DNA of 64,000 nt from an uncultured Alphaproteobacteria bacterium (GTDB lineage Bacteria > Pseudomonadota > Alphaproteobacteria > Rs-D84), in the NCBI GenBank assembly GCA_944389265.1, contig CALXLS010000005.1:22076-86075 (forward strand), given 5' to 3'. The stretch's first letter is position 1. Each line of letters opens with the position of its first letter. Made by a program: the position numbers and the translations under genes. Shown in pieces: positions 618 to 62,775 of the stretch. The notes beneath the pieces are model-generated. The model had not been told where the DNA came from and searched no databases. It saw only the letters and a program-made list of their open reading frames with translations.

Positions 618-1961
618 TTATTCGTTTCTTTTTTGTAGTTCTTCTAAGTAGATTTTTTCTTGGGATCCCAAAAAATTTTTAATATTTTCGTCTATATAAA
701 GATTATTGATTCCAAGCTTTTCTACTAAACATATATCTTTTACTTTATTAGTTCTACTTAATGCGACATACATTTGACCATGATACATTAACCCTGATGG
801 GTTTATTGTGACTTTAGATAAAGTTTGCCCCTGAGATTTGTTTACGGTTAGTGCATAAGCAAGTTTAAGAGGAATTTGTTTGTATAATGCATTAGGCGCG
901 GATTCTGTGACAAGGTTCCCATCTTTTTCTGTTATATCATAGCGTTCCCATTTAACAGGTTCGACTATATATATACCTCCTTTTGTTTTTACTTTAACAA
1001 ATTTCCCTTTCGGGCCTTGACCGAAACCTACCACCGTTCCCATAGTACCATTTTTCCAAGCACCACCACCAACATCGTTTTGAGTAAAAACAACTTTTGC
1101 ATTTATTTTTAGTTCCAAGAACATCGGTGAAGGATATTCTTCGGATTCTTGAGTGTTTTTTTTATTGGCAATTCGCCAGCCACAGTCAGTACCTATAAAA
1201 ACTTCTTTTTCTCCAGGTAAACTGCTTAAGCCTTGTTCATTTTTTTCGTCCACGATACTTCTTGTGCCAGCTATAAATATACCTTCTTTTTCATCTCCAT
1301 TTTTATAACAATTTTCATTAAAATAATCTACGGTTTCTTCTAAATCGAATTGGTATCTAATATGATTCAAATGAGTCCAGAAACTTCGTGCTTCTTTATC
1401 TCCTTTTTCGTCAAATTGTTGTCTATGTGGCATAAGTAATTCAACAAATTGAAATTTACCTTTTTTATATGCATTTGAATTGAAGAATAACGGCCATCTA
1501 TTTTTCCCGAATTCATCACCGTATCGCCTTTTTATATCATTGATTATATCATCTAATTTATCGTTATCGTTATAAAAAGACAAAACTTGATAAACATCAC
1601 CCGTTAACAAAACTTTGACGCCTCCGAACGGTTTCCAAGGAGTCTTCTTCGCCTTTTTTAATAAAGCGTCTATCGCGTCTAATATATCTGGTCTGACGTT
1701 CGATATTTCATCTATGATTAATAACTCGACACTTTTTAATTTTGAGGAAACAGGTATGCTTTCTAGATCTTTTTCTGTGATATATGGTGATGGAACCAAT
1801 TTAAAAAATGAGTGTATGGTGACACCTTTTACATTTAAAGCCGCCAATGCAGTAAATGCAACAACAACCGTGTTTGGGTGATTTCGTTCTATTGCCTCGA
1901 TTAAATAAGATTTCCCGGTTCCGGCTGCACCTTGTAAAAATAAATTTGTTTTTCCGGACAT
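618..1961 (-). CDS. Pif1/RecD-family (SF1B) DNA helicase
   Basis: Walker [10 protein letters not shown] near the N-terminus, Walker B LLIIDEIS, and C-terminal TVNKSQGQT motif typical of Pif1/RecD helicases. Length is 447 aa. Confidence 0.7.
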
Positions 1962-1968
1962 AACTTTA

Positions 1969-2616
1969 TCAAAAACATCCTTTTGAAAAAAAGTCTAGAT
2001 AAAATGGTTCGTTTGGGTTCTGTGGGTTGGGGACTTCATATATCAAGTCTTTTTTTTCTTTTATCAAATTAAGAACGGTTTTAAAAGTTTGTTCACCGTC
2101 AAACTCATTTTCTGTCTCGAATATATGGGCGGTTTGTTTTTTCTCTATGATGCCGTTCACCAAATCAAATTGATCACATACACTATCTAACGCCTCAAAA
2201 AAAGAATCTTTATCTAAATCTTCTATTTTCCACGCTTGTTTTACTAAATTACCTTCATATGAAGATTTAGATTTTGATGCCGATTGAATCCCCCATTTTT
2301 TTAAAAAGAACCCCATATTTTTAAAAGATACACCGTAACAAACCTCCAGCCATTGTTGGCCATTGAAATCTTTGTATAAATACACCGCAGGATACATTCC
2401 GTTTTTTAAAGTATTTTCGAAAGAGTCTACAGATTTTATAAAAGTAATATATGCTGTTTTTGGTGTGTTCTTATAGGGTTTCAGATTAAATACTAAATCA
2501 AAATCCCTGTACGTAGAACCTTCCCATATAGAAGAATTTACATTTCGACAAAAATTTCCTATAAAAAAACGCAAAAATAACCATAGTTGATCTTTATTCA
2601 TATTTTTACCTTGCAT
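1969..2616 (-). CDS. hypothetical protein co-transcribed upstream of Pif1-like helicase
   Basis: 215-aa ORF with 7-bp gap to the helicase start on the same strand. No recognisable motifs. Confidence 0.5.
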
Positions 2617-2980
2617 TTTTGAACATAAATAACGTGTGCTTAAATTGTCTCATACCCAATTGTTTTTTGCAACAATTAAAACGATAATTAGGTCGCGTCC
2701 AAATTTGGGGTATAGGTAGATTATAAATTAAGTGGATATATAACCAATACAAGAAAGGTAACTTTTCTTAAATATGATTTACTTTTTTTTATGTGTTTGG
2801 TATATATCTATTGTGGTTATATGAAGAAGGGTGACAACCATCTATAACTACTTAAATTTGTATAAGTGGTGCAGCTTTATCTGCATTGGGGTGCATACAG
2901 CCCAAGCTGATTGCCGTATTGACTCGTCATCAATCATAAAGGGTACGTTAAGCCCCTGCGCTATTTAAAAGGAGATTTTT

Positions 2981-3697
2981 ATGCCGAAAAAATATACTCG
3001 TCAGGAAACCCTAAACATTTTAGAGACAATGAAAAAAGAAGGTAAGGGATTTTCTTCTTTGTATAAAAAGGGTTTTATCAATTGGTCTGGTAAATCCATG
3101 GATAGAAGCAATTCAGAATACTATTCAGAAATTATATCAGATTGGTTATTAAATAATATGGATATATTAACTGGTAATCATATAAAGCAAGTAAACAGGG
3201 AGAATTATAAAGAATTTCATCCAGAACTAGATGAAAATACGCCGGCAACCAATCGTGAAGAAGAAAGAATCGCAAAAGAAATACATAAAGAAAAGGTTTA
3301 TAAAGAACTTGGTGAAGTTTTTGATTATCAGGTGCCTTTAAAAAAGACGAACAAAGATACTGGCGTAGGTAAGATAGACCTGGTTGCATTCAATAAAAAT
3401 GAAAACAATGTGTATTTGTTAGAGTTAAAAAGACGTGATAATTCTGAAACTTTATTGCGCTGCGTTTTGGAAATATATACATATTGGAAGCAACTTAATA
3501 AGGATAACTTTAAAAAGAGTTTCGACTTCCTACCATTAGATGCAAATATAATTCCTGCGGTATTAATTTTTAAAGATAGTGTACAATATAAGCAATATGA
3601 ATCAGAACATCCAAAGACAAGAAAACTTATGAAAGTATTAGGAATACAAACATTTGTTGTGACACAAGCAAAGTACACAATAGTTAAAGAGGATTAA
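2981..3697 (+). CDS. PD-(D/E)XK nuclease-like protein
   Basis: Motif GKIDLVAF-x10-VYLLELKRRD is a D...(D/E)xK signature. SD aaaaggag lies upstream. First gene of a 5-gene operon. Confidence 0.55.
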   Translation: MPKKYTRQETLNILETMKKEGKGFSSLYKKGFINWSGKSMDRSNSEYYSEIISDWLLNNMDILTGNHIKQVNRENYKEFHPELDENTPATNREEERIAKEIHKEKVYKELGEVFDYQVPLKKTNKDTGVGKIDLVAFNKNENNVYLLELKRRDNSETLLRCVLEIYTYWKQLNKDNFKKSFDFLPLDANIIPAVLIFKDSVQYKQYESEHPKTRKLMKVLGIQTFVVTQAKYTIVKED

Positions 3698-3698
3698 T

Positions 3699-3995
3699 AT
3701 GCGTATAAACAAGATAATTGTTGATAATATGGGCAATGTTTTTGCGCCTGTTGGTCGTGTTTCTGGCGGCTATGTGTATGACGACAGGGAAAGACTTATC
3801 GGAAGATATGTTGACGACAGGGTTGAATCTGTGAACAGACATATAATAGGTTTTGCCGCAGGTGGGGCGATTATGAACCCCGCAGGAAAGCAAGTTGCAA
3901 GATTAAATAATCGTTCTGAAATAGAAAGCAGCAAAACATTACGACCAGGGGAATATGCAGCAGTTTATAATTTTTTCTTCAAGGAGATAAAATAA
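3699..3995 (+). CDS. small protein with YD-like beta-hairpin repeats (GGYVYDDRERLIGRYVDD)
   Basis: 98-aa ORF, start 1 nt after the previous stop. Its repeat motif is shared with ORF 8515-8700. Confidence 0.45.
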   Translation: MRINKIIVDNMGNVFAPVGRVSGGYVYDDRERLIGRYVDDRVESVNRHIIGFAAGGAIMNPAGKQVARLNNRSEIESSKTLRPGEYAAVYNFFFKEIK

Positions 3996-4237
3996 TGGGG
4001 CGCAAAGTAAAATTACCAAATGGTGGCACCGTAGAGTGTGAAAGTTATCTTGGACCGACAGTTCATTGTTGTGCAACATGTCGTTTTTGGAATGGGTGTA
4101 GAATAATAGAAACCAACGGCAGTCATGTACTAGGTGTAGGGTTTGATAAAAGACAAAATCTTGGTGCATGTGGTGCAAAAAACAATGCCAGGGTTCCTGC
4201 GCGTTCGTCTTGTCCAAAATGGGTTGGTTTAAGGTAA
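3995..4237 (+). CDS. small Cys-rich protein (7 Cys, CCATCRFWNGC)
   Basis: 80-aa ORF. ATG overlaps the upstream stop (ataATGg), indicating translational coupling. Confidence 0.4.
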   Translation: MGRKVKLPNGGTVECESYLGPTVHCCATCRFWNGCRIIETNGSHVLGVGFDKRQNLGACGAKNNARVPARSSCPKWVGLR

Positions 4238-4250
4238 ATCAGGTGCGGCA

Positions 4251-5498
4251 ATGAAAATCTGTATATATCGTGGAACAAATGAAATCGGTGGAAACTGTGT
4301 AGAAATTGCAACAGACGCAACTCGTGTTTTATTCGATTTTGGGTTGCCTTTATCTTCGATGGAAGAAGAAGGGAAAAGTCTAACTGATTATAAAGTAAAT
4401 TGTTCGGGTATATATGCAGATGAAGAACCTTCTGTAAATGCTATTTTTATAACGCATAATCATCCAGACCATTACGGAATGCTTCCTTTAATTAATCCCA
4501 AAATTCCTGTATACATGTCGAAAACTTTACATGAAATACTGATAAAAATACAACCTTTGTTGCCAGGAAATTTTGATATATCGCATTTGGATATTCGTGA
4601 TGTTGATTCAGGCGAAAGTATAAAAATAGGGGATTTAACTATAACTGTACATCCAGTAGACCATGCACCAGCTGCGTGTGCTTATGAAATTTCTGACGGA
4701 AAGAAAAGAGTATTGTATACGGGAGATATCAGGTTTCATTCAAATCAAAGTTGGAAGTCATGGAAATTGGCGGACAAGGTCAAGAAGCCAGACTATCTGA
4801 TTATGGAAGGTACGCGCTTATCACGTACTGAGGCAAAAGAAAAATACCCGACCGAAGACGCAGTGTATAAACATCTGGTGCAAATTTTGCGTAATTCTGG
4901 GAAAGCAATATTTATAAGTTTGTCTTCTCAAAATTTAGACAGGTTGGTTTCTATGATTAAAGCATGCTTAGCAACTGGAAGGATTTTTGTAATTGACCCA
5001 TATACAGCGGCATTATTTGATATATTTCATGAATTGTCAGAAAGGGTGCCAACAGTAGAAATGGTTGATTGTGTAAAAATTTATTACGGTGGAAATCAAA
5101 AGATAGCAGAAAAAATGATTGCCAAAGGAATATTTAAGACACATAGCGCAAAAAAAATAACGATTGAAGAAATTGCAGAGTCCCCAGAAAAATATGTTAT
5201 AAAATATAATCGAACATTGATAAATTTGTTATTAAAGAACCAGATTAAAGATTACGATTTTATTTATTCTATGTGGCACGGTTATTTAGAAAGGAAGAAG
5301 ATTTGGGAACCATATAAAGAGCATTTAATAGAGGTACACACATCAGGTCATGCACAAGTTTCTGATTTGCAAGAATTTGTTAAGAAGATTTCTCCTGCCA
5401 AGATAATACCCATTCATACAGAATGTAAAGATAGTTATGCAGATGTTTTTTCTGCACCGATATTAAGTTTAAATGATAATGAACCAACAGAGGTATAA
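4251..5498 (+). CDS. metallo-beta-lactamase fold beta-CASP hydrolase, RNase J-like but lacking the RNase J C-terminal domain
   Basis: N-terminal EIGGNCVEI...VLFDFGLP...ITHNHPDHYG (HxHxDH) matches the RNase J pattern. C-terminal HTSGHAQ...IIPIHTE is beta-CASP motif C. Length 415 aa. Confidence 0.65.
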   Translation: MKICIYRGTNEIGGNCVEIATDATRVLFDFGLPLSSMEEEGKSLTDYKVNCSGIYADEEPSVNAIFITHNHPDHYGMLPLINPKIPVYMSKTLHEILIKIQPLLPGNFDISHLDIRDVDSGESIKIGDLTITVHPVDHAPAACAYEISDGKKRVLYTGDIRFHSNQSWKSWKLADKVKKPDYLIMEGTRLSRTEAKEKYPTEDAVYKHLVQILRNSGKAIFISLSSQNLDRLVSMIKACLATGRIFVIDPYTAALFDIFHELSERVPTVEMVDCVKIYYGGNQKIAEKMIAKGIFKTHSAKKITIEEIAESPEKYVIKYNRTLINLLLKNQIKDYDFIYSMWHGYLERKKIWEPYKEHLIEVHTSGHAQVSDLQEFVKKISPAKIIPIHTECKDSYADVFSAPILSLNDNEPTEV

Positions 5499-13965: not shown

Positions 13966-13997
13966 ATTTAAACGCCCCTTTTGGGGGCGTTTTTTTT
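13966..13997. terminator. GC hairpin terminator downstream of giant gene
   Basis: aaacgcccctttt gggggcgttt followed by an 8-T run. Confidence 0.5.
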
Positions 13998-16900
13998 ACC
14001 ACATTGTGTATCCTTCTTTACATGTACGGACGCACTTCTTTTTCGCTTGATCCCAAACCATTGTACCAGTTTCGTCTTCGTATTCTTCTTGAGGACAGAT
14101 AGGTACACATTCGTTGTTATCTAGGTTATAAAGTTCTCCTTGATACAAGCATGCGGCAATTTCACAACCTTGAACATAACTGCTTGCAGCTAATTGTCCA
14201 AGAACACTGTATTTATTTTTGCACTCGCCGCATTGTTTTGTGCGTTCATTTGTTTCTGATGGATCATTTGTATATCCTGGGTCACAAGATGTTGCGATAC
14301 ATTTACCCCAGTTCTTGGACGCATGATTCCATTCTTTGAACCCTATACCGTTCTCAACTGTGCAAGGTTGAATATCCGATACGCATGCGTTAGAAGCCAA
14401 ATGATATTCAGATTCACACTCTTTTATCATGCAAGGTCCGAACGCATTCAGGTTATAATCCCACTTTTGTTCAGCATATATTGCATTAGGAGCAGAGCAT
14501 TCTGTTATATCTTTTTCACATGCTCTTCCGTTTGGATGATAACCCAGTACGCATGTTGCTACCTGGCAAACACCTGTTTCCTTATAAGATAGAGCAAACT
14601 CTACATCACAAGGTTCGCACTTGCCGTTAATCATTTCATAGCCCCCGTTGCAAGATATTTCTACGCAAACATCGTCTACGATTTCGCAAGGGTTACCTGT
14701 ATCAGATACACCTTTAAATTCGCATTCATTAGGATAGAAGGCTTTATCATTTACAGGTACAGCCGTACCATTTTCTACCTTATATTCTTCGCACTTTTGA
14801 TAGCATCCACTTTCATCTTTTGCACCTGGCAGCGAGAATTCCCAAGAACCGTCACCTAGGTCTGCGCAAGATTTAACATCGCTACCTGGTTCATCTGGAT
14901 CTGTTTCACCGTCACAGAAACTTCCTTCTGGGCATTCTGTGCAGATTCCGTTCTCTAATGTATATCCTGCCAAGCATCTTGCAATTTTACATGTGTCAGG
15001 TGCTTGATAATAGTCACGACCAGACATTGCCGCAGCATTTTCTGCTATTGCACAATCTTTATAGCACATTGCTACATCTGTTGTGCCTGCGTCTGATTCT
15101 GGGTATTGACCACCAGTTAAAGAAGAACATGTTTTTTGTTCGCCTTCTTCGCAGACGCTTCCTGCAGGGCAATTGATGCAAGTATTGTCTACCTGAGAGT
15201 ACCCTTCATCGCAAGATACGACAGTACATGTTTGACAGCTTGCTGTATAATCAGAATCTGACTCATTGTAATGACATGTTTTCTCACCAGAACCGTTTGC
15301 AATTGGGCAAACGATATCTTCTCTGAAACATTCTGTTATTGCAGAACTTGTTTTTGTTGCTGTTATACCGTTCTGAGGGCACTGGAATCTGGATGTGTTA
15401 ACCGCAGGGCTATAATATCCGATACCAGCTTCTATACAGTCATCTACCTTTTTAATCTTGTCATAGTAGTAGCCTGCATCGCAACTTGTCATGGTTGGTG
15501 TTTCACAACTTGATGCATAGATTGCAGATGTGCCTTCACCACTTGTATAGTAGCATAGATATTCGCCAGTACCATGTAATGCTTCTGTATATGGCAGACC
15601 GTCTTTATAGCACAGACTGATACTATCTGCGATATCACTTTCTGTCTTACCGTTATTTGGGCATTCATGACGTTCTATATCGTCTGGGTCGCTATAGAAA
15701 TTCTGAGTGACCGGTGAACAGTCTGTATCAGAACTTTCTTCTAGCCAGTATCCACCACGACAACTATTTATAACTTTAGTATCGCAATCGCGTTGGTATA
15801 TAGCATCTGCACCAGTACCACTAGAGTAGAAACATCTCTGAGTACCTGTTCCATAAATTGCCGTGTAAGGTAAGTTTTCTTTATAGCAATTCTGAACCAT
15901 TGTAGAAGTATCTGTTTCTGTTAACCCGCTGCTTGGGCACTGTGTACGGCTTGTACCTGAACCGTCACTGTAGTATCCCTTGCCGACGACTTCACAGTCA
16001 GGTGTTTCTGCACCTGCGTCTGCTAGGTAATAACCTGCGTCACAGATGTTTATGACTTTATCAGTACACTGTGCAGAATAATCACTTGATGTCTGATTAT
16101 ATTGACATGTCTGAGTACCACTACCATGAGTCGCTGTATAAGGCAACTTAGTCTTATAGCACTTTGTCACAGAATCAGTACCACTAGGTGATGAACCTTG
16201 TTCTGGACAAACGTTCATACCTTCTGCGTGACCGCTATCTGTTGCGAACGAACCACCAGGGCAGTAATTATTTGCTGGACATTGTGTGCACTGAGTACCA
16301 GTTCCTGGATAATATGTACCTGGTTGGCATGTTGTTTTACCTGCCGCCCATCTTACATATATTGTTGCAGGTGACTTTGTTGTCATAGTTAACGCTTCTT
16401 CTGAGGTCTGGAATTCACCGTTTGCATTAATAATCTGTGTTCCGCCAGTTGAAGCAGAGTAGTATCCTGCCAGTTCGTAACTAGATTTGGTTGGCAACTT
16501 AGTCATTTTTGATATAGATGTTGTTGCACCAGAGTTGCTAAACCAACCTGTTGCATATTTCAGATAAACTGTGCTTGGTTCACCTGGAACATCCGAACCT
16601 GTATTATCTAAGTTTACAGTATAAACATTAGGTGTCCATACTGCATACAATGTTGTGTCAACACCTGTCGCAGATATATTAGTTGCTATAGATGTACCCG
16701 CATCATAGCATGGTGAACCACCATTTTTATCGGAACACCATTTTGCGACAACTGTATATCCGGCACGTGTCAAACCAGTTGTTGCAGGTAATTGACAACT
16801 GCCACTATTAAATGTGCATTTTACACTTGCAGCGACAGAACCTGCACCACCATTCTTATCCAGAGTAATTGTATACTCATTTGCTTTACATGATGGTTTT

Positions 16901-19900
16901 TCTGTATTGTTGGATTGTACTGTATAACCCGTTTCACAAGTCACAGCGAATGAGCATGCCGCATATGCGCTTGCGCTTATACCATAAACAGTATTTTCTT
17001 TCGCTGCAATAGAAGTAGAATTCGGTATTTCTATTTTACATTCTTTATAGCAGTCTGTGAAATTATCTGCGTATTCAGAAGATTCTACTTTTGAACCATT
17101 TGGGTCTACAGGACACGCAGTTTGGTCTGTGTCGTTTTCTGGGCTGTAATATCCGCTTGTAACGCCACTGCACAAGAATGCATTTGGTGTACTGTACCAA
17201 TAACCAGCCTTACAACTTTTTACTTCCAGTATGCTGCATCTTTCATATTTTTTGCTGCCTTCTATATAGAAGCACTTTGCTGATGCCACACCATTTTGGA
17301 AGCCTGAATAAGGGTCAAATACCTTATAGCATTCTGTTACATAAGTTGCACCACGTTCAGAAGTACCACCGTCTGGGCAGGTAATAGGACCAGAACCATC
17401 TTCTGGACAGTAAGAACCTGCTGGACACTCATTTGGATCGCCCCATACACAAGACGGATTTGTACTTGGGCTGTTTTCAGGAACATAATTTTCGTTACAT
17501 TCAGCACGATATTGACATTCTGGATACTTAGAACCGTCGTAATACTGATTTCCTGTTGACACGCCTTGACCGTTTTCAATGTCTAATGTTGGTGGGCATG
17601 TTTTATAACAGTCAGTAATATCACCAGAACCTGCTTCAGAAGTACCGCCTGCTGGGCATTCGTGTTCAATACCTTCTTCACAGTAAGAGCCTTCTGGACA
17701 TTCTTCTGGTTCTGTCTCTTCAGAGCCACCAGGGCAGTTAACACCGTCTTGGCACTTATTACATGTTGCATTTGCAGTACCGTTACCAGATGCAACATAT
17801 CCAGGATTACAATTTACATTATATGTACATGCTGGGTATGAAGAACCGTTATAGTAAACTTTTGCACTTACAACAGTTGCTGTACCGCCTGTAATGGTTT
17901 TGCCACCACAAGTTTTATAGCATCCTGTAGCCGCTGTTGAACCTGTGTCAGAACCATTATATCCAGATGGACACGTTGTTGAGCATCCTGCTTGCCCGAT
18001 ATTTGCAAAACCTGTACCTGGGCAGAAAGAACCAGAAGGGCAATCTACATGACTTGTGCCATTATAATATTTCCCTGCTTGACATTGTGTCGTCTGTTGT
18101 GACCAACAAGCATACATAGTTTTTGCAGATGTGAATGTTGTCTGGTATACGCCACTTGTGCAGCCAGAAGATTCACCCCAACCAGTAAATGAATAGCCTG
18201 TTTTTGTTAGACCGCTTGAAGGCAAATCACACAAAACGCCATGCTTGCACTTTTGTGTTGCATTTGCAGTACCAGACGAACCATTTATAGAGCCTGTACC
18301 ACCATTTTTGTTAAGGGTTATGGTATATTCGTCAGGTTCACAACTTCTTCCATCTGTTGATAGATGATAGCCTGGGTTACATTCAAATGTTTCACCACCA
18401 CCAGGGCATGTCGCATTAGGTACGCACGCAGCACATCCACTACCAGAGATGTAGTAGTCTTCTTTACATTGTGTCGCTGCACAAGTTTTTGTTCCACCTT
18501 TTGTTACTGTACCTGTAACTGCGGATGCATTTGGAACATCACTTGTCGTACAATCTCTATAGCAGATGCTATTTGTCTGAGATTTACATACATCATAAGT
18601 ACCTTTTGTAAATCCTGATACACTGCTACAAGAAACACTACAGTTTGAACATCCTGAACCATTTGGGTATTGTGTTGCACTACATCCGCAAGTGCCGGCA
18701 CCATCAGTATTCATGGAACATGCTGTCCATTGTGCAGTAAATGTAATATCTTTTGTATAAGTCCAAGTTATTTGTCCAGGTTGTTTAATTGTGGAGCCAT
18801 CATTCCAACCAGCAAAAGTATAACCTGGTTTTGAACATGTGTTAGATGCAATTACATAAGAACCACCATATTGCTGTGATGTACCACCTGGTGCATTACC
18901 GCTGCCAGTACCGCAAGAGTATGATACTTCATAAGTGTTTGGAATACATGTATCACCACTCTTCTGATAACCTGTTTCGCAAGTAAAGGTCATAGAGCAG
19001 GTAGGTGCAGTTGCACTACATGTTGTCGTTACCTGGTTCATAGTACCACTTGCTGTTTCTGAACCGAAATTACATGTTGCGGAATGTTCTGGGCAAGTAG
19101 GCTTCTTACAAGCAACTGTACAAGATTTGGTACATTGTGTTGCCGATGTTGCGCCTGCTGGTGACGAATATCCTGATTCACAAGCAGGGCAGGTTATACC
19201 ACTACTATAGTGATTAGCAGAAGCGGTCACCCCAGTAATAGGTTTATTACAATTATTAGGTGTACAATCTGACACAATAGTACCACTATATTTCTTTGTG
19301 TACGTACAACTACCAGGAGAACAAGTTCCTGTTGTTATACTGCTGCACCCAGAAGGAGTGGCTGGCGGTTGCTGTGTACCAGTTTTAGTAAATTCACCAA
19401 CGCATTCATTTATAGAACTAGCACCAGTTCCGTCACGATAACCTGATGGACATTGAGGGCAAGCAGCTCCATTTACGTAATATCCAGAATTTGCGGTTAC
19501 ACTTTTTATAGTTTGTTGGCAAGATGCATTATTTGTACTACATCCACTTTTTATAGTGCCGTCACCGGTTCCAGCAGAGTTAGAATATGCAACATATTCA
19601 CATGATGGATTTGAACACGTATTACACTGTACTGACGCGCAGTTAGATGGTTTTGTGCAAGAAGTTTGACTGCCTGTCCATGCACGTTGCTTTGTATTAC
19701 TATAACAGTCAGTTATTGCATCAGAACTAGTTGCAGAATTTGGATAACTACTTGGACAAGTGTTTATGCCTTGGTCACTTGAACTTGGGGTAAAAGTTCC
19801 ACCTTTACAGTAAGAACCAGCGGGACATGCTGTACATGATGTTGCGTTCGCTTTTAAATATGTTCCCGCAGAACATGTCACAGATGCTAGAACACATGTT

Positions 19901-20208
19901 TCACCGGAAACGACTTCATAGTCGTCCTGAGCGTGCCAGTACCCATCGGGACATCTACATGCCAGAGAAGTATTGTTTGCAGATGTTGTTGATTGCCAAC
20001 CACTGCCACTAGGACATTGTACACAGGCGTTCCCTACGTCTGTTCCGTTTAGGTAATAATTGGCATTACACGACGTGTATTTCTTTAAACTAGGACATGT
20101 ATATCCCGCAGCAAACGCATTGCCGACAAAAAATACCATGAATAAAGATGCCAAAAAACCAAGGAAATTGTGTCTTTTTCCCATATCTTCCCCTCTTTTG
20201 TATATCAT
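13996..20208 (-). CDS. giant secreted cysteine-rich repeat surface protein (ephrin-receptor-like/furin-like Cys modules plus Listeria-Bacteroides-type repeats)
   Basis: 2070-aa ORF. N-terminal signal/TM FLGFLASLFMVFFVGNAFA. Dozens of C-x2-C-P-x-G-x-Y-C modules. At least four ~75-aa repeats of the form YT(I/V)xL(D/N)KNGG...GY(T/S)FxGW...(L/M)YAxW. Confidence 0.8.
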   Translation of the reverse strand: MIYKRGEDMGKRHNFLGFLASLFMVFFVGNAFAAGYTCPSLKKYTSCNANYYLNGTDVGNACVQCPSGSGWQSTTSANNTSLACRCPDGYWHAQDDYEVVSGETCVLASVTCSAGTYLKANATSCTACPAGSYCKGGTFTPSSSDQGINTCPSSYPNSATSSDAITDCYSNTKQRAWTGSQTSCTKPSNCASVQCNTCSNPSCEYVAYSNSAGTGDGTIKSGCSTNNASCQQTIKSVTANSGYYVNGAACPQCPSGYRDGTGASSINECVGEFTKTGTQQPPATPSGCSSITTGTCSPGSCTYTKKYSGTIVSDCTPNNCNKPITGVTASANHYSSGITCPACESGYSSPAGATSATQCTKSCTVACKKPTCPEHSATCNFGSETASGTMNQVTTTCSATAPTCSMTFTCETGYQKSGDTCIPNTYEVSYSCGTGSGNAPGGTSQQYGGSYVIASNTCSKPGYTFAGWNDGSTIKQPGQITWTYTKDITFTAQWTACSMNTDGAGTCGCSATQYPNGSGCSNCSVSCSSVSGFTKGTYDVCKSQTNSICYRDCTTSDVPNASAVTGTVTKGGTKTCAATQCKEDYYISGSGCAACVPNATCPGGGETFECNPGYHLSTDGRSCEPDEYTITLNKNGGTGSINGSSGTANATQKCKHGVLCDLPSSGLTKTGYSFTGWGESSGCTSGVYQTTFTSAKTMYACWSQQTTQCQAGKYYNGTSHVDCPSGSFCPGTGFANIGQAGCSTTCPSGYNGSDTGSTAATGCYKTCGGKTITGGTATVVSAKVYYNGSSYPACTYNVNCNPGYVASGNGTANATCNKCQDGVNCPGGSEETEPEECPEGSYCEEGIEHECPAGGTSEAGSGDITDCYKTCPPTLDIENGQGVSTGNQYYDGSKYPECQYRAECNENYVPENSPSTNPSCVWGDPNECPAGSYCPEDGSGPITCPDGGTSERGATYVTECYKVFDPYSGFQNGVASAKCFYIEGSKKYERCSILEVKSCKAGYWYSTPNAFLCSGVTSGYYSPENDTDQTACPVDPNGSKVESSEYADNFTDCYKECKIEIPNSTSIAAKENTVYGISASAYAACSFAVTCETGYTVQSNNTEKPSCKANEYTITLDKNGGAGSVAASVKCTFNSGSCQLPATTGLTRAGYTVVAKWCSDKNGGSPCYDAGTSIATNISATGVDTTLYAVWTPNVYTVNLDNTGSDVPGEPSTVYLKYATGWFSNSGATTSISKMTKLPTKSSYELAGYYSASTGGTQIINANGEFQTSEEALTMTTKSPATIYVRWAAGKTTCQPGTYYPGTGTQCTQCPANNYCPGGSFATDSGHAEGMNVCPEQGSSPSGTDSVTKCYKTKLPYTATHGSGTQTCQYNQTSSDYSAQCTDKVINICDAGYYLADAGAETPDCEVVGKGYYSDGSGTSRTQCPSSGLTETDTSTMVQNCYKENLPYTAIYGTGTQRCFYSSGTGADAIYQRDCDTKVINSCRGGYWLEESSDTDCSPVTQNFYSDPDDIERHECPNNGKTESDIADSISLCYKDGLPYTEALHGTGEYLCYYTSGEGTSAIYASSCETPTMTSCDAGYYYDKIKKVDDCIEAGIGYYSPAVNTSRFQCPQNGITATKTSSAITECFREDIVCPIANGSGEKTCHYNESDSDYTASCQTCTVVSCDEGYSQVDNTCINCPAGSVCEEGEQKTCSSLTGGQYPESDAGTTDVAMCYKDCAIAENAAAMSGRDYYQAPDTCKIARCLAGYTLENGICTECPEGSFCDGETDPDEPGSDVKSCADLGDGSWEFSLPGAKDESGCYQKCEEYKVENGTAVPVNDKAFYPNECEFKGVSDTGNPCEIVDDVCVEISCNGGYEMINGKCEPCDVEFALSYKETGVCQVATCVLGYHPNGRACEKDITECSAPNAIYAEQKWDYNLNAFGPCMIKECESEYHLASNACVSDIQPCTVENGIGFKEWNHASKNWGKCIATSCDPGYTNDPSETNERTKQCGECKNKYSVLGQLAASSYVQGCEIAACLYQGELYNLDNNECVPICPQEEYEDETGTMVWDQAKKKCVRTCKEGYTMW

Positions 20209-20309
20209 CTTAGAAAAAATAGTATATATCGTGCAAGAGAAAAAATAAAATTAAAGCAATAAAATAAAAAAATAATAAAAAAATACACGCAAATGCGTGC
20301 ATATTTTGT

Positions 20310-20387
20310 GGTGGGTTAGGTAGGACTTGAACCCACGACCAAAGCGTTATGAGCGCTCCGCTCTAACCAACTGAGCTACTAACCCAC
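20310..20387 (-). tRNA. tRNA with CAU anticodon (Met or lysidine-type Ile2)
   Basis: Cloverleaf derived by hand: acceptor GUGGGUU/AACCCAC, anticodon loop CUCAUAA, T-loop GGUUCAAGUCC. Anticodon stem and T-arm resemble tRNA-Ile2 more than elongator Met. No encoded CCA. Confidence 0.75.
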
Positions 20388-20417: not shown

Positions 20418-21752
20418 ATGCAAGTGATTTTTATTATATGCTTTATTTTTATTTTTAACTATGACAATATTATTTTTATGACAGTAAATATATCTATCTT
20501 AAACGATGTACAGATGTCTGCGTTTAATACAATAGAACGCACTAATTCAAATGTTTTAATTTTGGGGCAGGCAGGAACAGGAAAGTCTACTTTTATAAAT
20601 TATATGAAATCTGCATCAAAAAAACGAATAATATGTGCTTGTCCGACGGCTGTATCTGCATTAAATGTTGGTGGGCAGACGATTCATTCTTTATTTCAAA
20701 TTCAACCACGTGATTTTATAATGCCAGAACTTTTGAAATTAAAAGCAAAACCACGGAATATATTAAATGCTGCGGACGTATTAGTAATAGACGAAATATC
20801 TATGGTTGCCCCGGATTTGTTGGACGCTATAGATATTCTGGCGCGAAGTGCGCGACATAATAATGCACCTTTTGGTGGATTGCAAGTTGTTGCAATTGGG
20901 GATTTGTTTCAACTGCCACCCGTTATTACTCGTGAAGCGATGGAGTATTATCAACAAGCATATGAACATACTAACGCATATTTTTTTGATAGTAATGTAT
21001 ATAAACGGGCTAATTTTTTAAGATATGATTTTGATTTAGTATATCGTCAATCTGATACTGGGTTGTTAGAGAATTTAAAAAGATTACGTGGTAATGATTT
21101 ATCTGCATTAGATTTTTTTAATTGCTGCAAAATAGAAGATGAATATAAAAGAGAAAATGCTGTTATAATTACACCATTTCGTGCAGTTGCAGAGCGCATA
21201 AATTCAGATAGATTAGCACAAATTAATGCGCCAGAAGTTGCTTATAATGGTGAATTGACCGGTACATTTCAAGAACGTGATACGCCTGCACCAATGAGTT
21301 TGATATTAAAGGTTGGTGCTTTGGTAGTTTTTGTAAAAAACGGAGATAAATGGCATAATGGCTCTATGGGTATTGTTAGAAATTTAGGTAGTAAAGAAAT
21401 ACAAGTTGAATTACTAAATTTATCTCATGATGTTGTTTCTGTAAAACCAGAAAAGTGGGCTAAGATAGAATATGTGCGTGACGAAAATGATAGATTAATT
21501 GAAAATGAAGTGGGCAGTTTTAAACAGTTCCCGTTAAATCTTGGTTATGCTATGACGATACATAAAGCACAAGGCAAAACATTGGATGCGGTAATTGTTG
21601 ATATATCACGTGGGGCATTTGCGCATGGGCAAACTTATGTTGCTTTATCGCGTACTAGAAACGCATCAGATATGCATATATCTGTTCCTCTAAGACCAAA
21701 AGATATTATTTTTGATAATCGTGTTTTGGATTTTGTTGGCGAAGTTCTTTAA
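20418..21752 (+). CDS. Pif1/RecD-family (SF1B) DNA helicase, second copy. Likely true start at ATG 20478.
   Basis: Walker A GQAGTGKST, Walker B VLVIDEISM, TIHKAQGKTLD motif. The first 20 codons are a hydrophobic low-complexity read-through. Confidence 0.7.
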   Translation: MQVIFIICFIFIFNYDNIIFMTVNISILNDVQMSAFNTIERTNSNVLILGQAGTGKSTFINYMKSASKKRIICACPTAVSALNVGGQTIHSLFQIQPRDFIMPELLKLKAKPRNILNAADVLVIDEISMVAPDLLDAIDILARSARHNNAPFGGLQVVAIGDLFQLPPVITREAMEYYQQAYEHTNAYFFDSNVYKRANFLRYDFDLVYRQSDTGLLENLKRLRGNDLSALDFFNCCKIEDEYKRENAVIITPFRAVAERINSDRLAQINAPEVAYNGELTGTFQERDTPAPMSLILKVGALVVFVKNGDKWHNGSMGIVRNLGSKEIQVELLNLSHDVVSVKPEKWAKIEYVRDENDRLIENEVGSFKQFPLNLGYAMTIHKAQGKTLDAVIVDISRGAFAHGQTYVALSRTRNASDMHISVPLRPKDIIFDNRVLDFVGEVL

Positions 21753-25834: not shown

Positions 25835-26165
25835 AAAAGCTGGGTTTCTGTTGCCGGGCACCCAGCAGCCCCGCAATAGGCTAAAGTGGATATAATTAAC
25901 AATTGCCAACTATATCCTGTGCCGTATTAGGCAGCCATTGCAAGGCGAACATTGTCGTTCGCAGCGATTCTATCGCCATTCAGTTTTTAGTTGGTCTTTT
26001 ACGACACCACGTCGGATTCAGCCAGTTTGCCTTTACTGCGCCTGTCGAAACTATGTCAGCCCCGTATGTATTATTGGTGGAGCTGTGGGGTACCGCCCCC
26101 CAGTCCAAAACGACTATTCCGCAACGGTTTCAGAATCATCATCGCTTATGCGACAGGAATTATTA
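25835..26165 (-). ncRNA. ssrA: tmRNA (ssrA), circularly permuted two-piece form
   Basis: Minus-strand RNA contains GGACUGGGGGGCGGUACCCCACAGCUCCACCA (T-arm, 3' acceptor strand, CCA). After 11 nt comes GGGGCUGACAUAGUUUCGACAGG, which is the tmRNA 5' acceptor strand. The tag ORF GCU GCG AAC GAC AAU GUU CGC CUU GCA AUG GCU GCC UAA encodes AANDNVRLAMAA-stop. 3' terminator hairpin at 25839-25866. Confidence 0.75.
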
Positions 26166-26199
26166 TATAATATTTACGGTGGAAATTGCAAGTTTTTAA

Positions 26200-27798: not shown

Positions 27799-28425
27799 AT
27801 GGCATTGTCATTAAAGGGCACTCAGACAGAAAAGAACCTGTTAATTGCATTTGCAGGTGAATCTCAGGCTCGTAATCGTTATAGTTTCTTTGCTTCCAAA
27901 GCAAAAGACGAAGGTTATCAAGCAATTTCAAAAATCTTTTTGGAAACTGCTGAACAAGAACGTGAACATGCTTCTCGTTTGTTTAAGTTTTTAGAAGGTG
28001 GTGATTTGGAAATTACCGCTTCATATCCAGCAGGTAAAATCGGTACAACTTTGGAAAATTTGCAGGCAGCGGCATTCGGTGAACATGAAGAAAACACAGT
28101 AATGTACCCAAAGTTTGCACAAATTGCGGCGCAAGAAGGTTTCGATTCAATCGCGGAAGTTTTGAAAAATATCGGTTATGCAGAACGCTATCACGAATCA
28201 CGTTATCGTGCTTTGATTGATGCAATTGAATCTGGTACATTATTCAAACAGGACAAGATTGTTATGTGGCGTTGCACAAATTGCGGTATGTGGCACATTG
28301 GAACAGAAGCCCCAAAAGTATGCCCTGCATGCTTGCATCCACAGGGATATTTCATCAGTGAAGGTACAATATCTCGCTGTGATACAAATGAAGGTTTCTG
28401 CGAATATGCAAAAATCGATGACTAA
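27799..28425 (+). CDS. rbr: rubrerythrin (diiron domain + C-terminal rubredoxin-like CxxC-x12-CxxC)
   Basis: ExxH ferritin-like motifs (EQEREHASR, ERYHESRYR) and CTNCGM...CPAC tail. SD ggag 8 nt upstream. Confidence 0.75.
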   Translation: MALSLKGTQTEKNLLIAFAGESQARNRYSFFASKAKDEGYQAISKIFLETAEQEREHASRLFKFLEGGDLEITASYPAGKIGTTLENLQAAAFGEHEENTVMYPKFAQIAAQEGFDSIAEVLKNIGYAERYHESRYRALIDAIESGTLFKQDKIVMWRCTNCGMWHIGTEAPKVCPACLHPQGYFISEGTISRCDTNEGFCEYAKIDD

Positions 28426-28574: not shown

Positions 28575-29258
28575 ATGAAGAAAATAATTCTTACAAGTAT
28601 TGTTGGGTTGTCATTTGCCGCATCTGCAAATGCAGGTGTTATCGGTTGGGATAATCAATATGTGACAGCTGGAATATCTGGGGGCTTAGGTTCTGGAAGT
28701 TTTATGGTTGGTTCTGAAGAATATGGTTGGAGTATGGCCACTGATTTGGATAAGAACTTTTTTGGTGCCAACATTGGTTATGGTGCATATTTGCAGGATA
28801 ATATACGTGCAGAATTTGATTTTGAATATAAAGGGATAGAATCAAAAGTAAACGATAATCTTAATAAATTTATTGAGGAAAATGGAGATGAAAGTAATCC
28901 AAATCGTGATTCTTTATTCTTAGTATCTGCGAACTTATTTGCTGATATTGACATGGGGTATAAAATTGTACCTTACTTTGGTTTTGGTATTGGTGCAGGA
29001 TATTTGTCATCTACAGTAGATAAAACATTTATGATAGAAAAAGATTTAGATTTGTCTAATTTTGCTTATACAACCAGTTTTATGTTGGGGTTGTCTTATA
29101 AGATATCTGATTCATGGATAGCAGGTTTAGAATACAAAAATACAAATTTATATGGAAAGTTTGAAGAAAGTATTGGCGATGAAGACGGAGCCATGGAGTT
29201 TAAGTATAAAGATTCTATGTTGCACGAATTTAAGTTGTCAGTACGATATGCTTTCTAA
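28575..29258 (+). CDS. outer-membrane beta-barrel protein (OmpA-like/Opa-like small porin family)
   Basis: Signal peptide MKKIILTSIVGLSFAASANA. Alternating amphipathic beta-strands. Terminal aromatic (...SVRYAF). Confidence 0.55.
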   Translation: MKKIILTSIVGLSFAASANAGVIGWDNQYVTAGISGGLGSGSFMVGSEEYGWSMATDLDKNFFGANIGYGAYLQDNIRAEFDFEYKGIESKVNDNLNKFIEENGDESNPNRDSLFLVSANLFADIDMGYKIVPYFGFGIGAGYLSSTVDKTFMIEKDLDLSNFAYTTSFMLGLSYKISDSWIAGLEYKNTNLYGKFEESIGDEDGAMEFKYKDSMLHEFKLSVRYAF

Positions 29259-34530: not shown

Positions 34531-34560
34531 AACAACTGGGGACATAGCCCCAGTTGTTTA
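34531..34560. terminator. bidirectional hairpin
   Basis: aacaactgggg-acatag-ccccagttgtt. Confidence 0.5.
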
Positions 34561-35067
34561 TTCTGCGGCGAAACCGCATATATACCAATTAACTTCAGCA
34601 CTAATCCAGTCTCCGGAATTACCCTTCAAAGTTATTATAGAACAATCAGTTGTGTTTTTTGTTGTGTAATGACATCCATGTGGTGTTGTGCTGCTTGTAG
34701 CAGAAGGACTTTTTGATATAGCAACAAGTGTATATTGTGTGTTTTGCATTTCTATTGGGAATTCTGCTTTATATGTAGATGCTGCACTAGGTGTACCAAG
34801 ACCTCCTTGTTCTACCCAACCGCTTTTATATTTTCTATACCAGGTATAATTATTTACTGAAGTAGGTATTTGGTAATCAATTACATAATCTATTGTGGTT
34901 AAATCTGGTATCTCGCTTTTTTTGGCCAAAGATATACCGCCTGAGGTATGACCATCATGTACACGAATAGTGTTGTTTGTTGTATCCACTGTGATTTCGC
35001 CTGCGGCCCCGATGAAAGAAGAATGTTCTGTCGCTGTACCACGACGTAATTGTACTTGTTTAGACAT
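34558..35067 (-). CDS. phage tail-fibre-like protein (conserved N-terminal RRGT...GE...DT...IRVHDGxTxGG motif)
   Basis: N-terminal QLRRGTATEHSSFIGAAGEITVDTTNNTIRVHDGHTSGGI matches the motif of alphaproteobacterial phage tail-fibre/DUF2793-type proteins. Confidence 0.45.
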   Translation of the reverse strand: MSKQVQLRRGTATEHSSFIGAAGEITVDTTNNTIRVHDGHTSGGISLAKKSEIPDLTTIDYVIDYQIPTSVNNYTWYRKYKSGWVEQGGLGTPSAASTYKAEFPIEMQNTQYTLVAISKSPSATSSTTPHGCHYTTKNTTDCSIITLKGNSGDWISAEVNWYICGFAAE

Positions 35068-35175: not shown

Positions 35176-35252
35176 TGGCGCACCCAGCAGGATTCGAACC
35201 TGCAACCTTGTCCTTCGGAGGGACACGCCATATCCAGTTAGGCCATGGGTGC
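35176..35252 (-). tRNA. tRNA-Arg (CCG)
   Basis: Hand-folded cloverleaf: acceptor GCACCCA/UGGGUGC, anticodon loop CUCCGAA, T-loop GGUUCGAAUCC, encoded CCA. Confidence 0.85.
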
Positions 35253-41347: not shown

Positions 41348-42094
41348 TTATTTGGCTTTTTTTGTACTCTTTGTTGTATTATTAAACACATCTTCTTTGC
41401 TTAACTTTTTAAATGTCAAATACCAGGTTTTCACATCTAAGGAGTTATCTTTATTTTCAATGCGCTTATTCATATCGCTTGTAGTAGATGGTGCAGGCAC
41501 AACAACATCATCTCCTGGCTGCCAATCTGCTGGTGTTGCTACATGGAAATTATCAGCTGTTTGCAATGCAATCAAAACGCGCTTTATTTCATCAAAATTG
41601 CGTCCCGTTGTCAGCGGATAATACAAAATTGTTCTTATTATACCTTGGGGGTCTATAATAAATACTGCACGTACAGTTTTACCATCCGCTGCATTATGAT
41701 GCAACATACCGTATTTCTTAGCAACTTCCATGTTCATATCATCAATTATAGGGAAGGTGATATTCATTCCTTTCCAGCCATGATAATCTATGTCTTTAAT
41801 TGATTTTATCCACGCAAGATGCCCCGTCAAAGTACCGATAGACAATCCTATTATTTCTGTGTTTAACTTTTGAAATTCGGTCAGCATAGATTGAAAAGTC
41901 ATAAACTCTGTTGTACAAACTGGGGTAAAATCGGCAGGATGAGAAAACAGAATTACCCATTTACCTGCATAATCTGACGGAAAATTAACTTTGCCATTAG
42001 TAGTATTTGCAATAAAATCTGGTGCAGGATCGCCAATTAAGGGCAACTGTATAGTTTCAGCCAAGAAAGAGTCATCATTACAAAAATCACACAT
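41348..42094 (-). CDS. peroxiredoxin (thioredoxin-fold, peroxidatic Cys in FTPVCTTE)
   Basis: FSHPADFTPVCTTEF motif. 248 aa with a C-terminal extension. Confidence 0.75.
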   Translation of the reverse strand: MCDFCNDDSFLAETIQLPLIGDPAPDFIANTTNGKVNFPSDYAGKWVILFSHPADFTPVCTTEFMTFQSMLTEFQKLNTEIIGLSIGTLTGHLAWIKSIKDIDYHGWKGMNITFPIIDDMNMEVAKKYGMLHHNAADGKTVRAVFIIDPQGIIRTILYYPLTTGRNFDEIKRVLIALQTADNFHVATPADWQPGDDVVVPAPSTTSDMNKRIENKDNSLDVKTWYLTFKKLSKEDVFNNTTKSTKKAK

Positions 42095-61827: not shown

Positions 61828-62775
61828 GTGTGCAATAATATAATCACTATGATAAAGATAAGCACAGATACATATAAAGCATTTCAGCGAACAAGTAACC
61901 CCAGAATGGCGGAGAAAGACTATATAGAATGCGCTATTTTGGAAGAATTGTTCAATGATCCATATATCAGCAAACAATTTGTTTTTGCTGGTGGTGGCTC
62001 TATAACTAAATCATATAATTTTTCACAACGTATTGGTCAAGACATTGATTTGGCATGTGCAGATTTTGAAGACTTGCCAGACGAACATTCAAAAAAACAA
62101 TTAACAAACTTCAAGAAACAATTTAAAACATTTGTTTTTGATGTATTAAAACCAAAAGTAAATTACATCATAAATCAAGACCAGCAATTTATGATTGCCA
62201 CAGACCGTGATTGGCGTGCATTAGAAAACAAAGAACAATTTTTGTCTTCTCCGACATTACACTTGTTATATAAATCTGCATTTGGGCCAGAAATGGGGCA
62301 TTTGTGTCTTGAAATTATTCCTCGTAAATATGAAAAGAACAAGATACAGCATCGTTCCGTTGTTCCATATTCTATAAAACAAGAAATGGGGGAAATTCCA
62401 ACCGTACGATACGAGCAAACATTCTGGGATAAAGTATTTGCATTACATTCAACAGCAAAAACAGAGATGCCAAGATTAAGAGAAACATTTTCACGTCATT
62501 ATTATGATGTTGCCAGAATTGCGGACTATGTAAATTTAAACGAAACAAAAGAATTTTTATTTGACATCTCAAATTATCAAGCCAAATACACAACAAAAGG
62601 CATACCACCGTTGACATCTACTGCAGAAGTAGAACTGATTCCAGAAGAATCGACATTAACGCGACTAGGTGAAGATTATGCCAAAATATCAGAACTATTT
62701 TTGGCTAATCCTGAAAGTTGGCAGAGCATTATTCGCAATTTAGTACAATTAAATAACAATTTAAAAACGCTATAA
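61828..62775 (+). CDS. AbiEii/DUF1814-like nucleotidyltransferase (type IV TA toxin family)
   Basis: EKDYIECAILEELF...FVFAGGGSITKSYNFSQRIGQDIDLAC resembles the AbiEii N-terminal GGTAL...R(F)S.DIDF core. Confidence 0.5.
   Translation: MCNNIITMIKISTDTYKAFQRTSNPRMAEKDYIECAILEELFNDPYISKQFVFAGGGSITKSYNFSQRIGQDIDLACADFEDLPDEHSKKQLTNFKKQFKTFVFDVLKPKVNYIINQDQQFMIATDRDWRALENKEQFLSSPTLHLLYKSAFGPEMGHLCLEIIPRKYEKNKIQHRSVVPYSIKQEMGEIPTVRYEQTFWDKVFALHSTAKTEMPRLRETFSRHYYDVARIADYVNLNETKEFLFDISNYQAKYTTKGIPPLTSTAEVELIPEESTLTRLGEDYAKISELFLANPESWQSIIRNLVQLNNNLKTL

Follow-up and report, generated by a model that had tools for sequence, protein, structure and literature searches.

Within the 64,000-nucleotide stretch analysed here (the window; positions 22,076 to 86,075 of contig CALXLS010000005.1, assembly GCA_944389265.1, from an uncultured alphaproteobacterium) lies a very large gene that occupies a single open reading frame (ORF) of 2070 amino acids (aa) on the minus strand, with its stop codon at 13996-13998 (Table 1). 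The original prediction for this locus had reported the single ORF and an N-terminal signal or anchor; both were borne out, with the strand now added. The sole hydrophobic segment spans residues 14-33, the hydropathy (KD19) maximum elsewhere is 1.2, and over the whole protein no membrane segment follows residue 40. The true start is most likely Met9 (ATG at 20184), because nearly all homologues begin at query residue 9, with MGKxRxFLGF...GNAFA/AGYTCP, and because GAGGGG stands 5 nt ahead of it, whereas inspection found no Shine-Dalgarno sequence ahead of the upstream ATG at 20208; the real product would thus be about 2062 aa long and the mature protein about 2037 aa. The n-h-c layout of the signal peptide and its AxA cleavage site are kept across ~90 homologues, and inspection of the signal peptide sequence revealed no lipobox cysteine. 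The gene is real and under purifying selection, since the ratio of nonsynonymous to synonymous substitution rates (dN/dS) is 0.065 against a 94%-identical orthologue in the sister strain L001, a search of 5.8 billion proteins returned 363 related clusters (1164-3617 aa), and a protein of identical sequence occurs on four other contigs of the same project. With one terminator-like hairpin after its stop codon and another after the tRNA upstream, it looks like a transcription unit of its own; a promoter scan stayed at the level of shuffled sequence (20 found, 19 expected), and we claim no promoter.

The cysteine-rich composite module

Cysteine accounts for 166 of the 2070 residues (8.0%), compared with a mean of 1.02% and a maximum of 3.2% in the 36 other ORFs of the window; Thr, Ser, Gly, Tyr and Asn are abundant as well. 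The number of Cys is even, and the Cys themselves are near-invariant across the family, with conservation in our alignment A1 reaching 97% in the Cys columns versus 53% for other residues. Dozens of C-x2-C-P-x-G-(S/Y)-Y-C units over the whole length had been predicted, which proved an overstatement: there are five exact CxxCPxG motifs, 15 CPxG and five CPxG[STYN][YF]C, and profile searches delimit nine clear and two degenerate ephrin-receptor-like units. The ‘cysteine-rich repeats’ proposed as markers of horizontal gene transfer in a preprint (10.64898/2026.06.07.730663) follow a different pattern, Cx6-9Cx5-7Cx8-11Cx7-8CC, and were set aside as unrelated.

Self-comparison of the protein, cut into chunks, revealed that outside the Flg_new repeats described below it has a period of ~93 aa, cleanest in the four tandem copies of residues 1294-1665 (mutual identity 35-44%), with further copies at 112-198 and 709-1100 and degenerate ones at 1666-1852, to a total of about 9-11 modules. 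Each is a composite, in which a 53-aa ephrin-receptor-like half is followed by a 40-aa three-stranded β-meander. In the second array the ephrin-receptor-like halves fall at residues 709-766, 819-870, 924-962 and 999-1056, and the variable region of residues 34-424 holds one such unit (112-170) together with ~2.5 copies of a second, 95-aa Cys-rich repeat (178-410). An alignment of 40 family modules (A2) has six invariant or near-invariant Cys and the consensus CxxGYY..DC..VG..YYSP.....R..CP..G.T...TA.....CYK....Y....G.GTQ.C.Y........Y...C....I.

Ephrin-receptor-like and GCC2_GCC3 are two names for one Pfam family, Ephrin_rec_like (PF07699), and this family gave no match at E<=1 over the whole protein; its best segment reached E 5.6 and 7.3 bits, short of the 23.1-bit gathering threshold. 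However, when the module profile was compared with PDB sequences it retrieved ELAPOR1 (E 0.005) and Mst1 (E 0.013), the latter named an ephrin type A/B receptor-like domain protein by its PDB depositors. An exhaustive HMMER search with the same profile against 1.84 billion representatives found 860 proteins at E<=1e-3. Full-length matches (89 positions) were confined to large members of this bacterial family, with 59 cluster representatives at E<=1e-30, and the earlier remark that such modules are rare in bacteria therefore holds for the full module. Many more proteins match module positions 1-52 only, in up to 36 tandem copies, and these half-module matches are eukaryotic, coming from a clam PCSK5/SCUBE-like protein, Diphylleia, Cantina, Diplonema, lungfish and the green alga Raphidocelis. 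Pfam itself recognises Ephrin_rec_like in four of the five half-module eukaryotes tested, one of them with 29 copies (E 4e-268). Moreover, the module profile aligns in register with all 29 clam repeats, and HHalign of A2 against an alignment of these repeats (A4) gave a probability of 95.3% and an E-value of 2.2e-8 over 53 columns. Four independent lines, namely the PDB matches, the exhaustive HMMER search, the eukaryotic Ephrin_rec_like arrays to which it led and the HHalign result, thus show that the first half of the module is a divergent, Cys-depleted member of the Ephrin_rec_like superfamily, related by remote homology.

The canonical pattern of six Cys (C, CxxC, CxxC and C in ~48-52 residues) is incomplete here: the module consensus keeps four of the six, having lost one Cys from each CxxC (the second in the first motif, the first in the second), where the aligned columns show V/G and R, and CxxC is retained only at the five CxxCPxG sites. 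The 40-residue β-meander, which is specific to the family, adds two new Cys. It is because two Cys were lost and this meander gained that Pfam misses the modules, so that the predicted ephrin-receptor-like/GCC2_GCC3 class was right in kind, as seen in HHalign, the transitive search and the modelled fold, while failing at the Pfam threshold. Known Ephrin_rec_like proteins (SCUBE- and PCSK5-like proteins, ELAPOR1, the cysteine-rich domains of Eph receptors) share the pattern CxxG(Y/F)...C..(C)..G.Y...(C)..CP.G..T......DC and, like this protein, carry it in tandem as disulfide-stapled rods; the unit here differs in being fused to the meander and in keeping, in most copies, only four of six Cys.

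Flg_new repeats, predicted fold and known systems

The sole family recognised by Pfam and NCBIfam in the whole protein is Flg_new (PF09479, 67.8 bits against a cut-off of 27), known in NCBIfam as List_Bact_rpt (TIGR02543, 38.3 bits against 20.95), with copies scattered through the first 60% of the chain. The four predicted repeats with YTI/VxL(D/N)KNGG...GY(T/S)FxGW...YAxW are indeed there, at lengths of 70-95 aa; as Flg_new members three copies individually exceed the Pfam threshold, whereas the fourth is divergent, at 12.9 bits. Segment searches with Pfam gave sub-threshold matches only for DUF7631 (PF24634) and cEGF. In 67 homologue clusters the C-terminal 781 residues are kept, invariably as the very end of the protein, with 59-79% identity across family clusters over the last 311 residues; by contrast, species differ in how long their N-terminal half is and in what it contains, family members range from ~1160 to ~4440 aa (1164-4444), and dN/dS against L001 is highest (0.09-0.21) within the first 450 residues. 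The terminal Trp was considered as an outer membrane protein (OMP)-type sorting signal and dropped, CxxGY(x)W being the hairpin that opens every module.

For residues 1290-2070 and 26-1225, AlphaFold2 models built with family alignments reached predicted local distance difference test (pLDDT) scores of 87.2 and 74.2, respectively. Both are all-β chains of short hairpins, with predicted template modelling (pTM) scores of 0.30-0.32, the low values expected of a flexible rod, and in each modelled module a hairpin-rich first half precedes the three-stranded meander. Foldseek against the PDB found Mst1 as the best match for both halves (E 7.9e-7 and 1.9e-5) and ELAPOR1 next (E 1.2e-4). Whole-chain TM-scores to Mst1 are very low (0.05-0.12, at 12-15% identity), so the likeness is one of repeat type and not of overall shape. 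In the N-terminal model Foldseek also matched the InlB B-repeat fold (2y5p_D, probability 0.99, target TM-score 0.65, root-mean-square deviation 3.8 Å) and the other InlB structures 7pv9, 9qr4 and 9qr5, and it gave weak matches to the cysteine-rich domains of EphA2/A4 (E 0.08-0.6) and to TNFR-type domains. A viral structure library returned nothing below E 1e-3 (top, a poxvirus TNFR-like protein at 1.2e-3), and phmmer with the full protein against PDB sequences gave no matches at E<=1.

Several known systems share part of this architecture. Mst1, the Chlamydomonas mastigoneme protein (PDB 8wa2, 8tx1, 9b4h), is likewise an extracellular rod, of ~1900 residues, in which a tandem of six ephrin-receptor-like (sushi-like) domains carries a regular disulfide ladder; however, it also possesses nine immunoglobulin (Ig)-like domains and a glycosylated polyproline-II helix and assembles into a defined filament, and only the Cys-rich repeat type is shared. 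InlB B-repeat proteins resemble it in fold and in their Flg_new copies, and family members carry the NCBI name ‘InlB B-repeat-containing protein’, yet here the repeats make up only ~15% of the protein, standing singly or as one pair between Cys-rich arrays, two of the copies contain Cys, and unlike internalin the protein has no leucine-rich-repeat internalin domain. Fibrillar adhesins are similar in being very long, exported and non-enzymatic, with a tandem-repeat stalk, which this protein has, and a repeat number that varies between species. Their stalk is usually built of Ig-like or similar Cys-free domains, whereas here it consists of disulfide-rich modules of eukaryote type, and the gene occurs in a single copy, in conserved synteny and under strong constraint. 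Giardia variant-specific surface proteins (VSPs) and ciliate surface antigens, to which the original prediction had compared it, are also Cys-rich, belong to gut or aquatic microbes and have some CxxC and CPxG motifs. The VSP-like features are nevertheless not present, as VSPs form a multigene family with a C-terminal transmembrane segment and a CRGKA tail, whereas this protein ends in GYTMW with no transmembrane segment and no paralogue in the window, and Pfam gave no VSP (PF03302) match at E<=1 or E<=10. A type V autotransporter barrel was found neither by Pfam nor in the model, in which the C-terminal 781 aa form Cys-rich hairpins (pLDDT 87). RTX/BAP adhesins secreted by type I systems lack an N-terminal Sec signal and are Cys-poor, in contrast to the Sec-type signal and 8% Cys seen here, and Pfam gave no RTX match. 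What we describe is a giant, probable surface protein of bacteria, built of repeats, in whose stalk a remodelled eukaryote-type disulfide module takes the place of the usual Cys-free Ig-like domains.

Locus, inheritance and family

As predicted, the gene is richer in guanine plus cytosine (GC; 0.41-0.43) than its flanks (0.31-0.35) and abuts a tRNA gene, ~100 bp upstream on the same strand. The excess lies wholly in codon position 2 (0.556), third-position GC (GC3) being 0.256 against 0.20-0.32 in the neighbours, and is explained by amino-acid composition, not by foreign DNA. The order Lon, TsaB, (ORF), PIF1-like helicase, tRNA(CAT), large gene, HI0933-like flavoprotein and alpha/beta hydrolase is kept in five related species, and Obg...Lon...PIF1 and the gene stay in order even at 42-47% identity (GCA_029060095.1 and GCA_031266915.1, the latter labelled ‘Rickettsiales bacterium’). 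On the strength of this synteny, seen in every relative examined, and of the native GC3, the gene is old, vertically inherited and fixed at a single locus across the clade, and the tRNA is a conserved neighbour and not an island boundary; the suggestion of recent acquisition that went with the original prediction therefore fails. The anticodon arm of this tRNA presumably resembles those of tRNA-Ile2 (lysidine) genes. The 64-kb window holds no paralogue. At one related locus (GCA_029060095.1, positions 16945-19245) a second Cys-rich secreted protein, of 766 aa with 54 Cys, lies directly 3' of the orthologue, with which it shares the mature N-terminal motif AGYTCxxLKKYTSC. Its C-terminus differs (...TTYSVHDDSM, like that of homologue P0095), and it represents a paralogous family with a common N-terminal ‘address’.

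The family is already in the databases under an uninformative automatic name: where names are given, its clusters are called ‘InlB B-repeat-containing protein’ or ‘hypothetical protein’, from uncultured Alphaproteobacteria, and our literature search found no paper on it. One member, 43% identical over the C-terminal 844 residues, is annotated as Candidatus Enterousia, which belongs to the order Rs-D84; genomes of this order are mostly <1 Mb, with sizes of 0.7-1.6 Mb reported, and are without biosynthetic and respiratory pathways, and an obligately partner-dependent life has been predicted for it (PMC12306168). Two members stand in records with discordant labels. L006 (CALXAO010000146.1, a 10-kb contig) is labelled Clostridia, yet its HI0933-like and alpha/beta-hydrolase neighbours match the alphaproteobacterial loci, and the label is probably a binning error; the same is probably true of P0070, in a record labelled Muribaculaceae, where we go by the label alone.

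The rest of the window is an ordinary chromosome, with Obg, RF2, RpoD, CysRS, cell-wall amidases and glycosyltransferases. A permuted two-piece transfer-messenger RNA (tmRNA) independently confirms the class Alphaproteobacteria, the OMP β-barrel gene marks the organism as diderm, and rubrerythrin and peroxiredoxin point to anaerobic or microaerophilic life, so that the gene content points to a walled, diderm, oxygen-sensitive alphaproteobacterium. For such a cell the 83 disulfides to be oxidised in one protein raise a puzzle. Eukaryote-like repeats also occur in an ankyrin-repeat protein encoded ~7 kb from the large gene in this small-genome gut alphaproteobacterium. Mtd_N is the N-terminal domain of the major tropism determinant of diversity-generating retroelements, and the 169-aa ORF that carries it may be a target gene of such an element or a phage remnant; the AbiEii-type gene and the TraA-like ORF may likewise be traces of mobile elements.

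Table 1. Features of the large gene, its product and the surrounding window (positions in the window; residues numbered from the start of the longest ORF)
Feature	Position	Strand	Basis or remark
Large gene, longest ORF; 8-codon upstream extension probably untranslated	13996..20208	-	homologue starts and Shine-Dalgarno; dN/dS against L001
Shine-Dalgarno GAGGGG, 5 nt before ATG 20184-20182	20190..20195	-	sequence inspection, homologue starts
Sec-type signal peptide, residues 9-33, MGKRHNFLGFLASLFMVFFVGNAFA then AG	20110..20184	-	rule-based assignment; conserved layout
Variable N-terminal Cys-rich region, residues 34-424	18937..20109	-	lowest identity, highest dN/dS (0.09-0.21) against L001; pLDDT 28-85
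Flg_new (InlB B-repeat) copy 1, residues 426-493	18730..18933	-	Pfam 33 bits, E 6.4e-8; NCBIfam TIGR02543
Cys-rich linker, residues 497-625, cEGF-like hairpin at its end (609-624)	18334..18720	-	cEGF 23.2 bits, below 26.6 cut-off
Flg_new copy 2, residues 628-700	18109..18327	-	Pfam 37.7 bits, E 2.3e-9
Second module array, residues 709-1107, four composite modules	16888..18084	-	self-comparison, profile search
Flg_new copy 3, residues 1112-1190	16639..16875	-	Pfam 29.5 bits, E 8.1e-7
Divergent Flg_new-like copy 4, Cys-free, residues 1195-1288	16345..16626	-	Pfam 12.9 bits, E 0.13, sub-threshold; YTVNL...YELAGYY...IYVRW visible
Conserved C-terminal block, residues 1290-2070, predicted all-β disulfide-stapled rod	13999..16341	-	homologue alignment; AlphaFold
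Four clean tandem 93-aa composite modules, residues 1294-1665	15214..16329	-	self-comparison, AlphaFold, HHalign
Most conserved stretch, residues 1760-2070, CxxGY hairpin chain ending ...CKEGYTMW-COOH	13999..14931	-	family alignment
GC-rich terminator-like hairpin, 10 bp stem, 3 nt past stop codon	13970..13992	.	separates gene from downstream HI0933-like gene
Terminator-like hairpin of tRNA	20283-20302	.	GC-rich hairpin
tRNA, anticodon CAT, ~100 bp upstream of large gene	20309-20385	-	ARAGORN call Met
PIF1-like superfamily 1 (SF1) helicase, divergent from tRNA and large gene	20418-21752	+	neighbour in every related locus examined
ORF weakly like C-terminal part of Ti-type relaxase TraA	618-1961	-	E 8e-9, far below cut-off
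Ankyrin-repeat protein, 468 aa	5501-6907	+	Ank_2 E 5.9e-14; 97% conserved in sister strain L001/L007
Permuted two-piece alphaproteobacterial tmRNA	25836-26195	-	Rfam alpha_tmRNA, 151 bits
Rubrerythrin	27799-28425	+	
Small OMP β-barrel protein	28575-29258	+	OMP_b-brl, E 2.2e-9; weakly like Rickettsia Adr adhesin, E 6.6e-7, far below cut-off
169-aa ORF, Pfam Mtd_N	34558-35067	-	E 1.1e-15; beside tRNA-Arg(CCG) 35176-35252
Peroxiredoxin	41348-42094	-	
AccD-AccA carboxyltransferase fusion, 580 aa	42543-44285	+	
AbiEii-type toxin nucleotidyltransferase	61828-62775	+	E 7e-18

Proposed function and competing explanations

The gene encodes a Sec-exported, non-enzymatic, rod-shaped extracytoplasmic protein, and we lean, with modest confidence, towards the view that in this gut alphaproteobacterium with its small genome it acts as a fibre on the cell surface, akin to fibrillar adhesins. 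That it is an exported disulfide-rich structural repeat protein we hold with much higher confidence than that it is an adhesin; its surface location and ligand are inferred. After Sec export the chain would fold oxidatively in the periplasm into a disulfide ladder, which would lend it stiffness and resistance to proteases in the gut; in the Mst1 mastigoneme the ephrin-receptor-like tandem carries such a ladder, with disulfides ~11 Å apart, and gives robustness to an extracellular filament (PMC10602792). It would then be transferred to the cell surface by a route that we tie to no known exporter. There the conserved C-terminal stalk would form the structural part proximal to the cell, and the variable N-terminal half with its Flg_new copies the exposed part, touching a partner cell, host mucus or particles. 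Flg_new may bind ligands, and in gut-adapted methanogens proteins with this repeat figure among the adhesion factors found enriched (PMC7883539). Where a lineage relies on metabolites from other cells, as is predicted for this one, the protein would serve as an attachment device.

A number of observations weigh against a surface fibre. Pfam, the structural model and the sequence reveal no autotransporter barrel, lipobox, sortase-type or type IX secretion system (T9SS)-type C-terminal signal; no secretion genes lie among the window neighbours; and searches of Pfam, NCBIfam, PDB and folds recognised no adhesive ‘tip’ or anchor domain. Both termini are conserved, so that conservation would leave the polarity of the rod unfixed. 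The tie to the Rs-D84 lifestyle is one of protein-family relatedness only, through the identity to the Enterousia member, and disulfide formation would require a Dsb system, on which our view is limited to the 64-kb window. A single-copy, strongly constrained gene is also less typical of fast-evolving adhesins. Of the adhesin or effector role that had been proposed, surface contact or adhesion thus remains plausible and a mimicry of host ligands finds no sign, while the ‘intracellular symbiont’ was an assumption, the records speaking of uncultured gut Alphaproteobacteria whose relatives are predicted to be partner-dependent.

The alternative of a protective surface coat, in which many copies form a disulfide-rich layer resistant to proteases and bile, like the VSP coat of Giardia without antigenic switching, strikes us as unlikely. 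It would suit the Cys-, Thr-, Ser- and Gly-rich composition, the gut origin and a core, single-copy, strongly constrained gene of structural role, and by analogy the robustness that its disulfide ladder gives Mst1; however, with its length of over 2000 aa, the Flg_new repeats set between its arrays and a species-variable N-terminal half, the rod resembles a projecting fibre more than a packing lattice, and the protein has no membrane anchor comparable to the transmembrane tail of VSPs. Improbable to about the same degree is the bolder form of the fibre reading, an organelle by which an obligately partner-dependent, reduced-genome gut bacterium of the Rs-D84/Enterousia type attaches to its partner, a mastigoneme-like, disulfide-laddered fibre whose building block was anciently captured from a eukaryote and remodelled. 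Such an organelle, if real, would mark an ancient association of the lineage with a gut eukaryote or other cell and give a handle for finding the partner.

Overlapping with the organelle, and rather less probable, is a self-assembling extracellular filament, the subunits polymerising into a hair-like appendage just as those of Mst1 build mastigonemes. The filament-forming Mst1 is indeed the top structural match for both halves, and the highly conserved termini could serve as subunit interfaces; the TM-scores nevertheless denote a shared repeat type and not a shared architecture, and the Ig domains and polyproline helix of Mst1 are absent. We give similarly little weight to a structural protein of the periplasm or envelope interior that never reaches the surface. 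The Sec signal without a recognisable feature for outer-membrane export or anchoring would agree with it, yet an extended rod of ~45 small domains would, from the domain count, be far longer than the periplasm is wide, Flg_new domains are typical of surface proteins, and the species-variable N-terminal half suggests external selection. Least supported, and in our judgement very improbable, is the proposal of the original prediction, that an intracellular symbiont uses the protein as an effector or adhesin in host mimicry, its gene having come only recently from a eukaryotic host and been inserted beside the tRNA: the homology of the modules to a mostly eukaryotic repeat family, the ankyrin-repeat gene 7 kb away and the predicted partner dependence of relatives speak for it, but GC3 is native, synteny down to 42-47% identity would make any transfer ancient, the module has diverged (one Cys pair lost, a 40-aa insert gained, the Pfam model failed), the window genes (rubrerythrin, peroxiredoxin, cell-wall amidases, OMP) are typical of a walled anaerobe and give no evidence of intracellular life, and ligand binding by Eph receptors does not reside in Ephrin_rec_like, which is a spacer domain.

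Whether as the surface fibre that we favour or in another role, the protein represents a mostly eukaryotic disulfide-rich repeat domesticated in bacteria to yield a new composite module. Current domain libraries do not capture this module, which is why family members are labelled only ‘InlB B-repeat-containing’ or ‘hypothetical’, and their annotation would gain from a profile made specifically for the 93-aa unit. If the 0.7-1.6 Mb size of the order applies, this one 6.2-kb gene takes up ~0.4-0.8% of the genome. The reduced-genome gut Alphaproteobacteria to which it appears to belong (Rs-D84/Ca. Enterousia and relatives, from animals and humans) are uncultured and predicted to live off other cells, with no partner or attachment mechanism known (PMC12306168). 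Its single locus throughout the clade and its strong constraint make the gene a prime candidate for the interface with partner cells, and the variable N-terminal half could be used both to tell strains apart and as bait in the search for the partner. The importance of the protein would rise sharply if it proved to be the device by which these bacteria attach to their partner.

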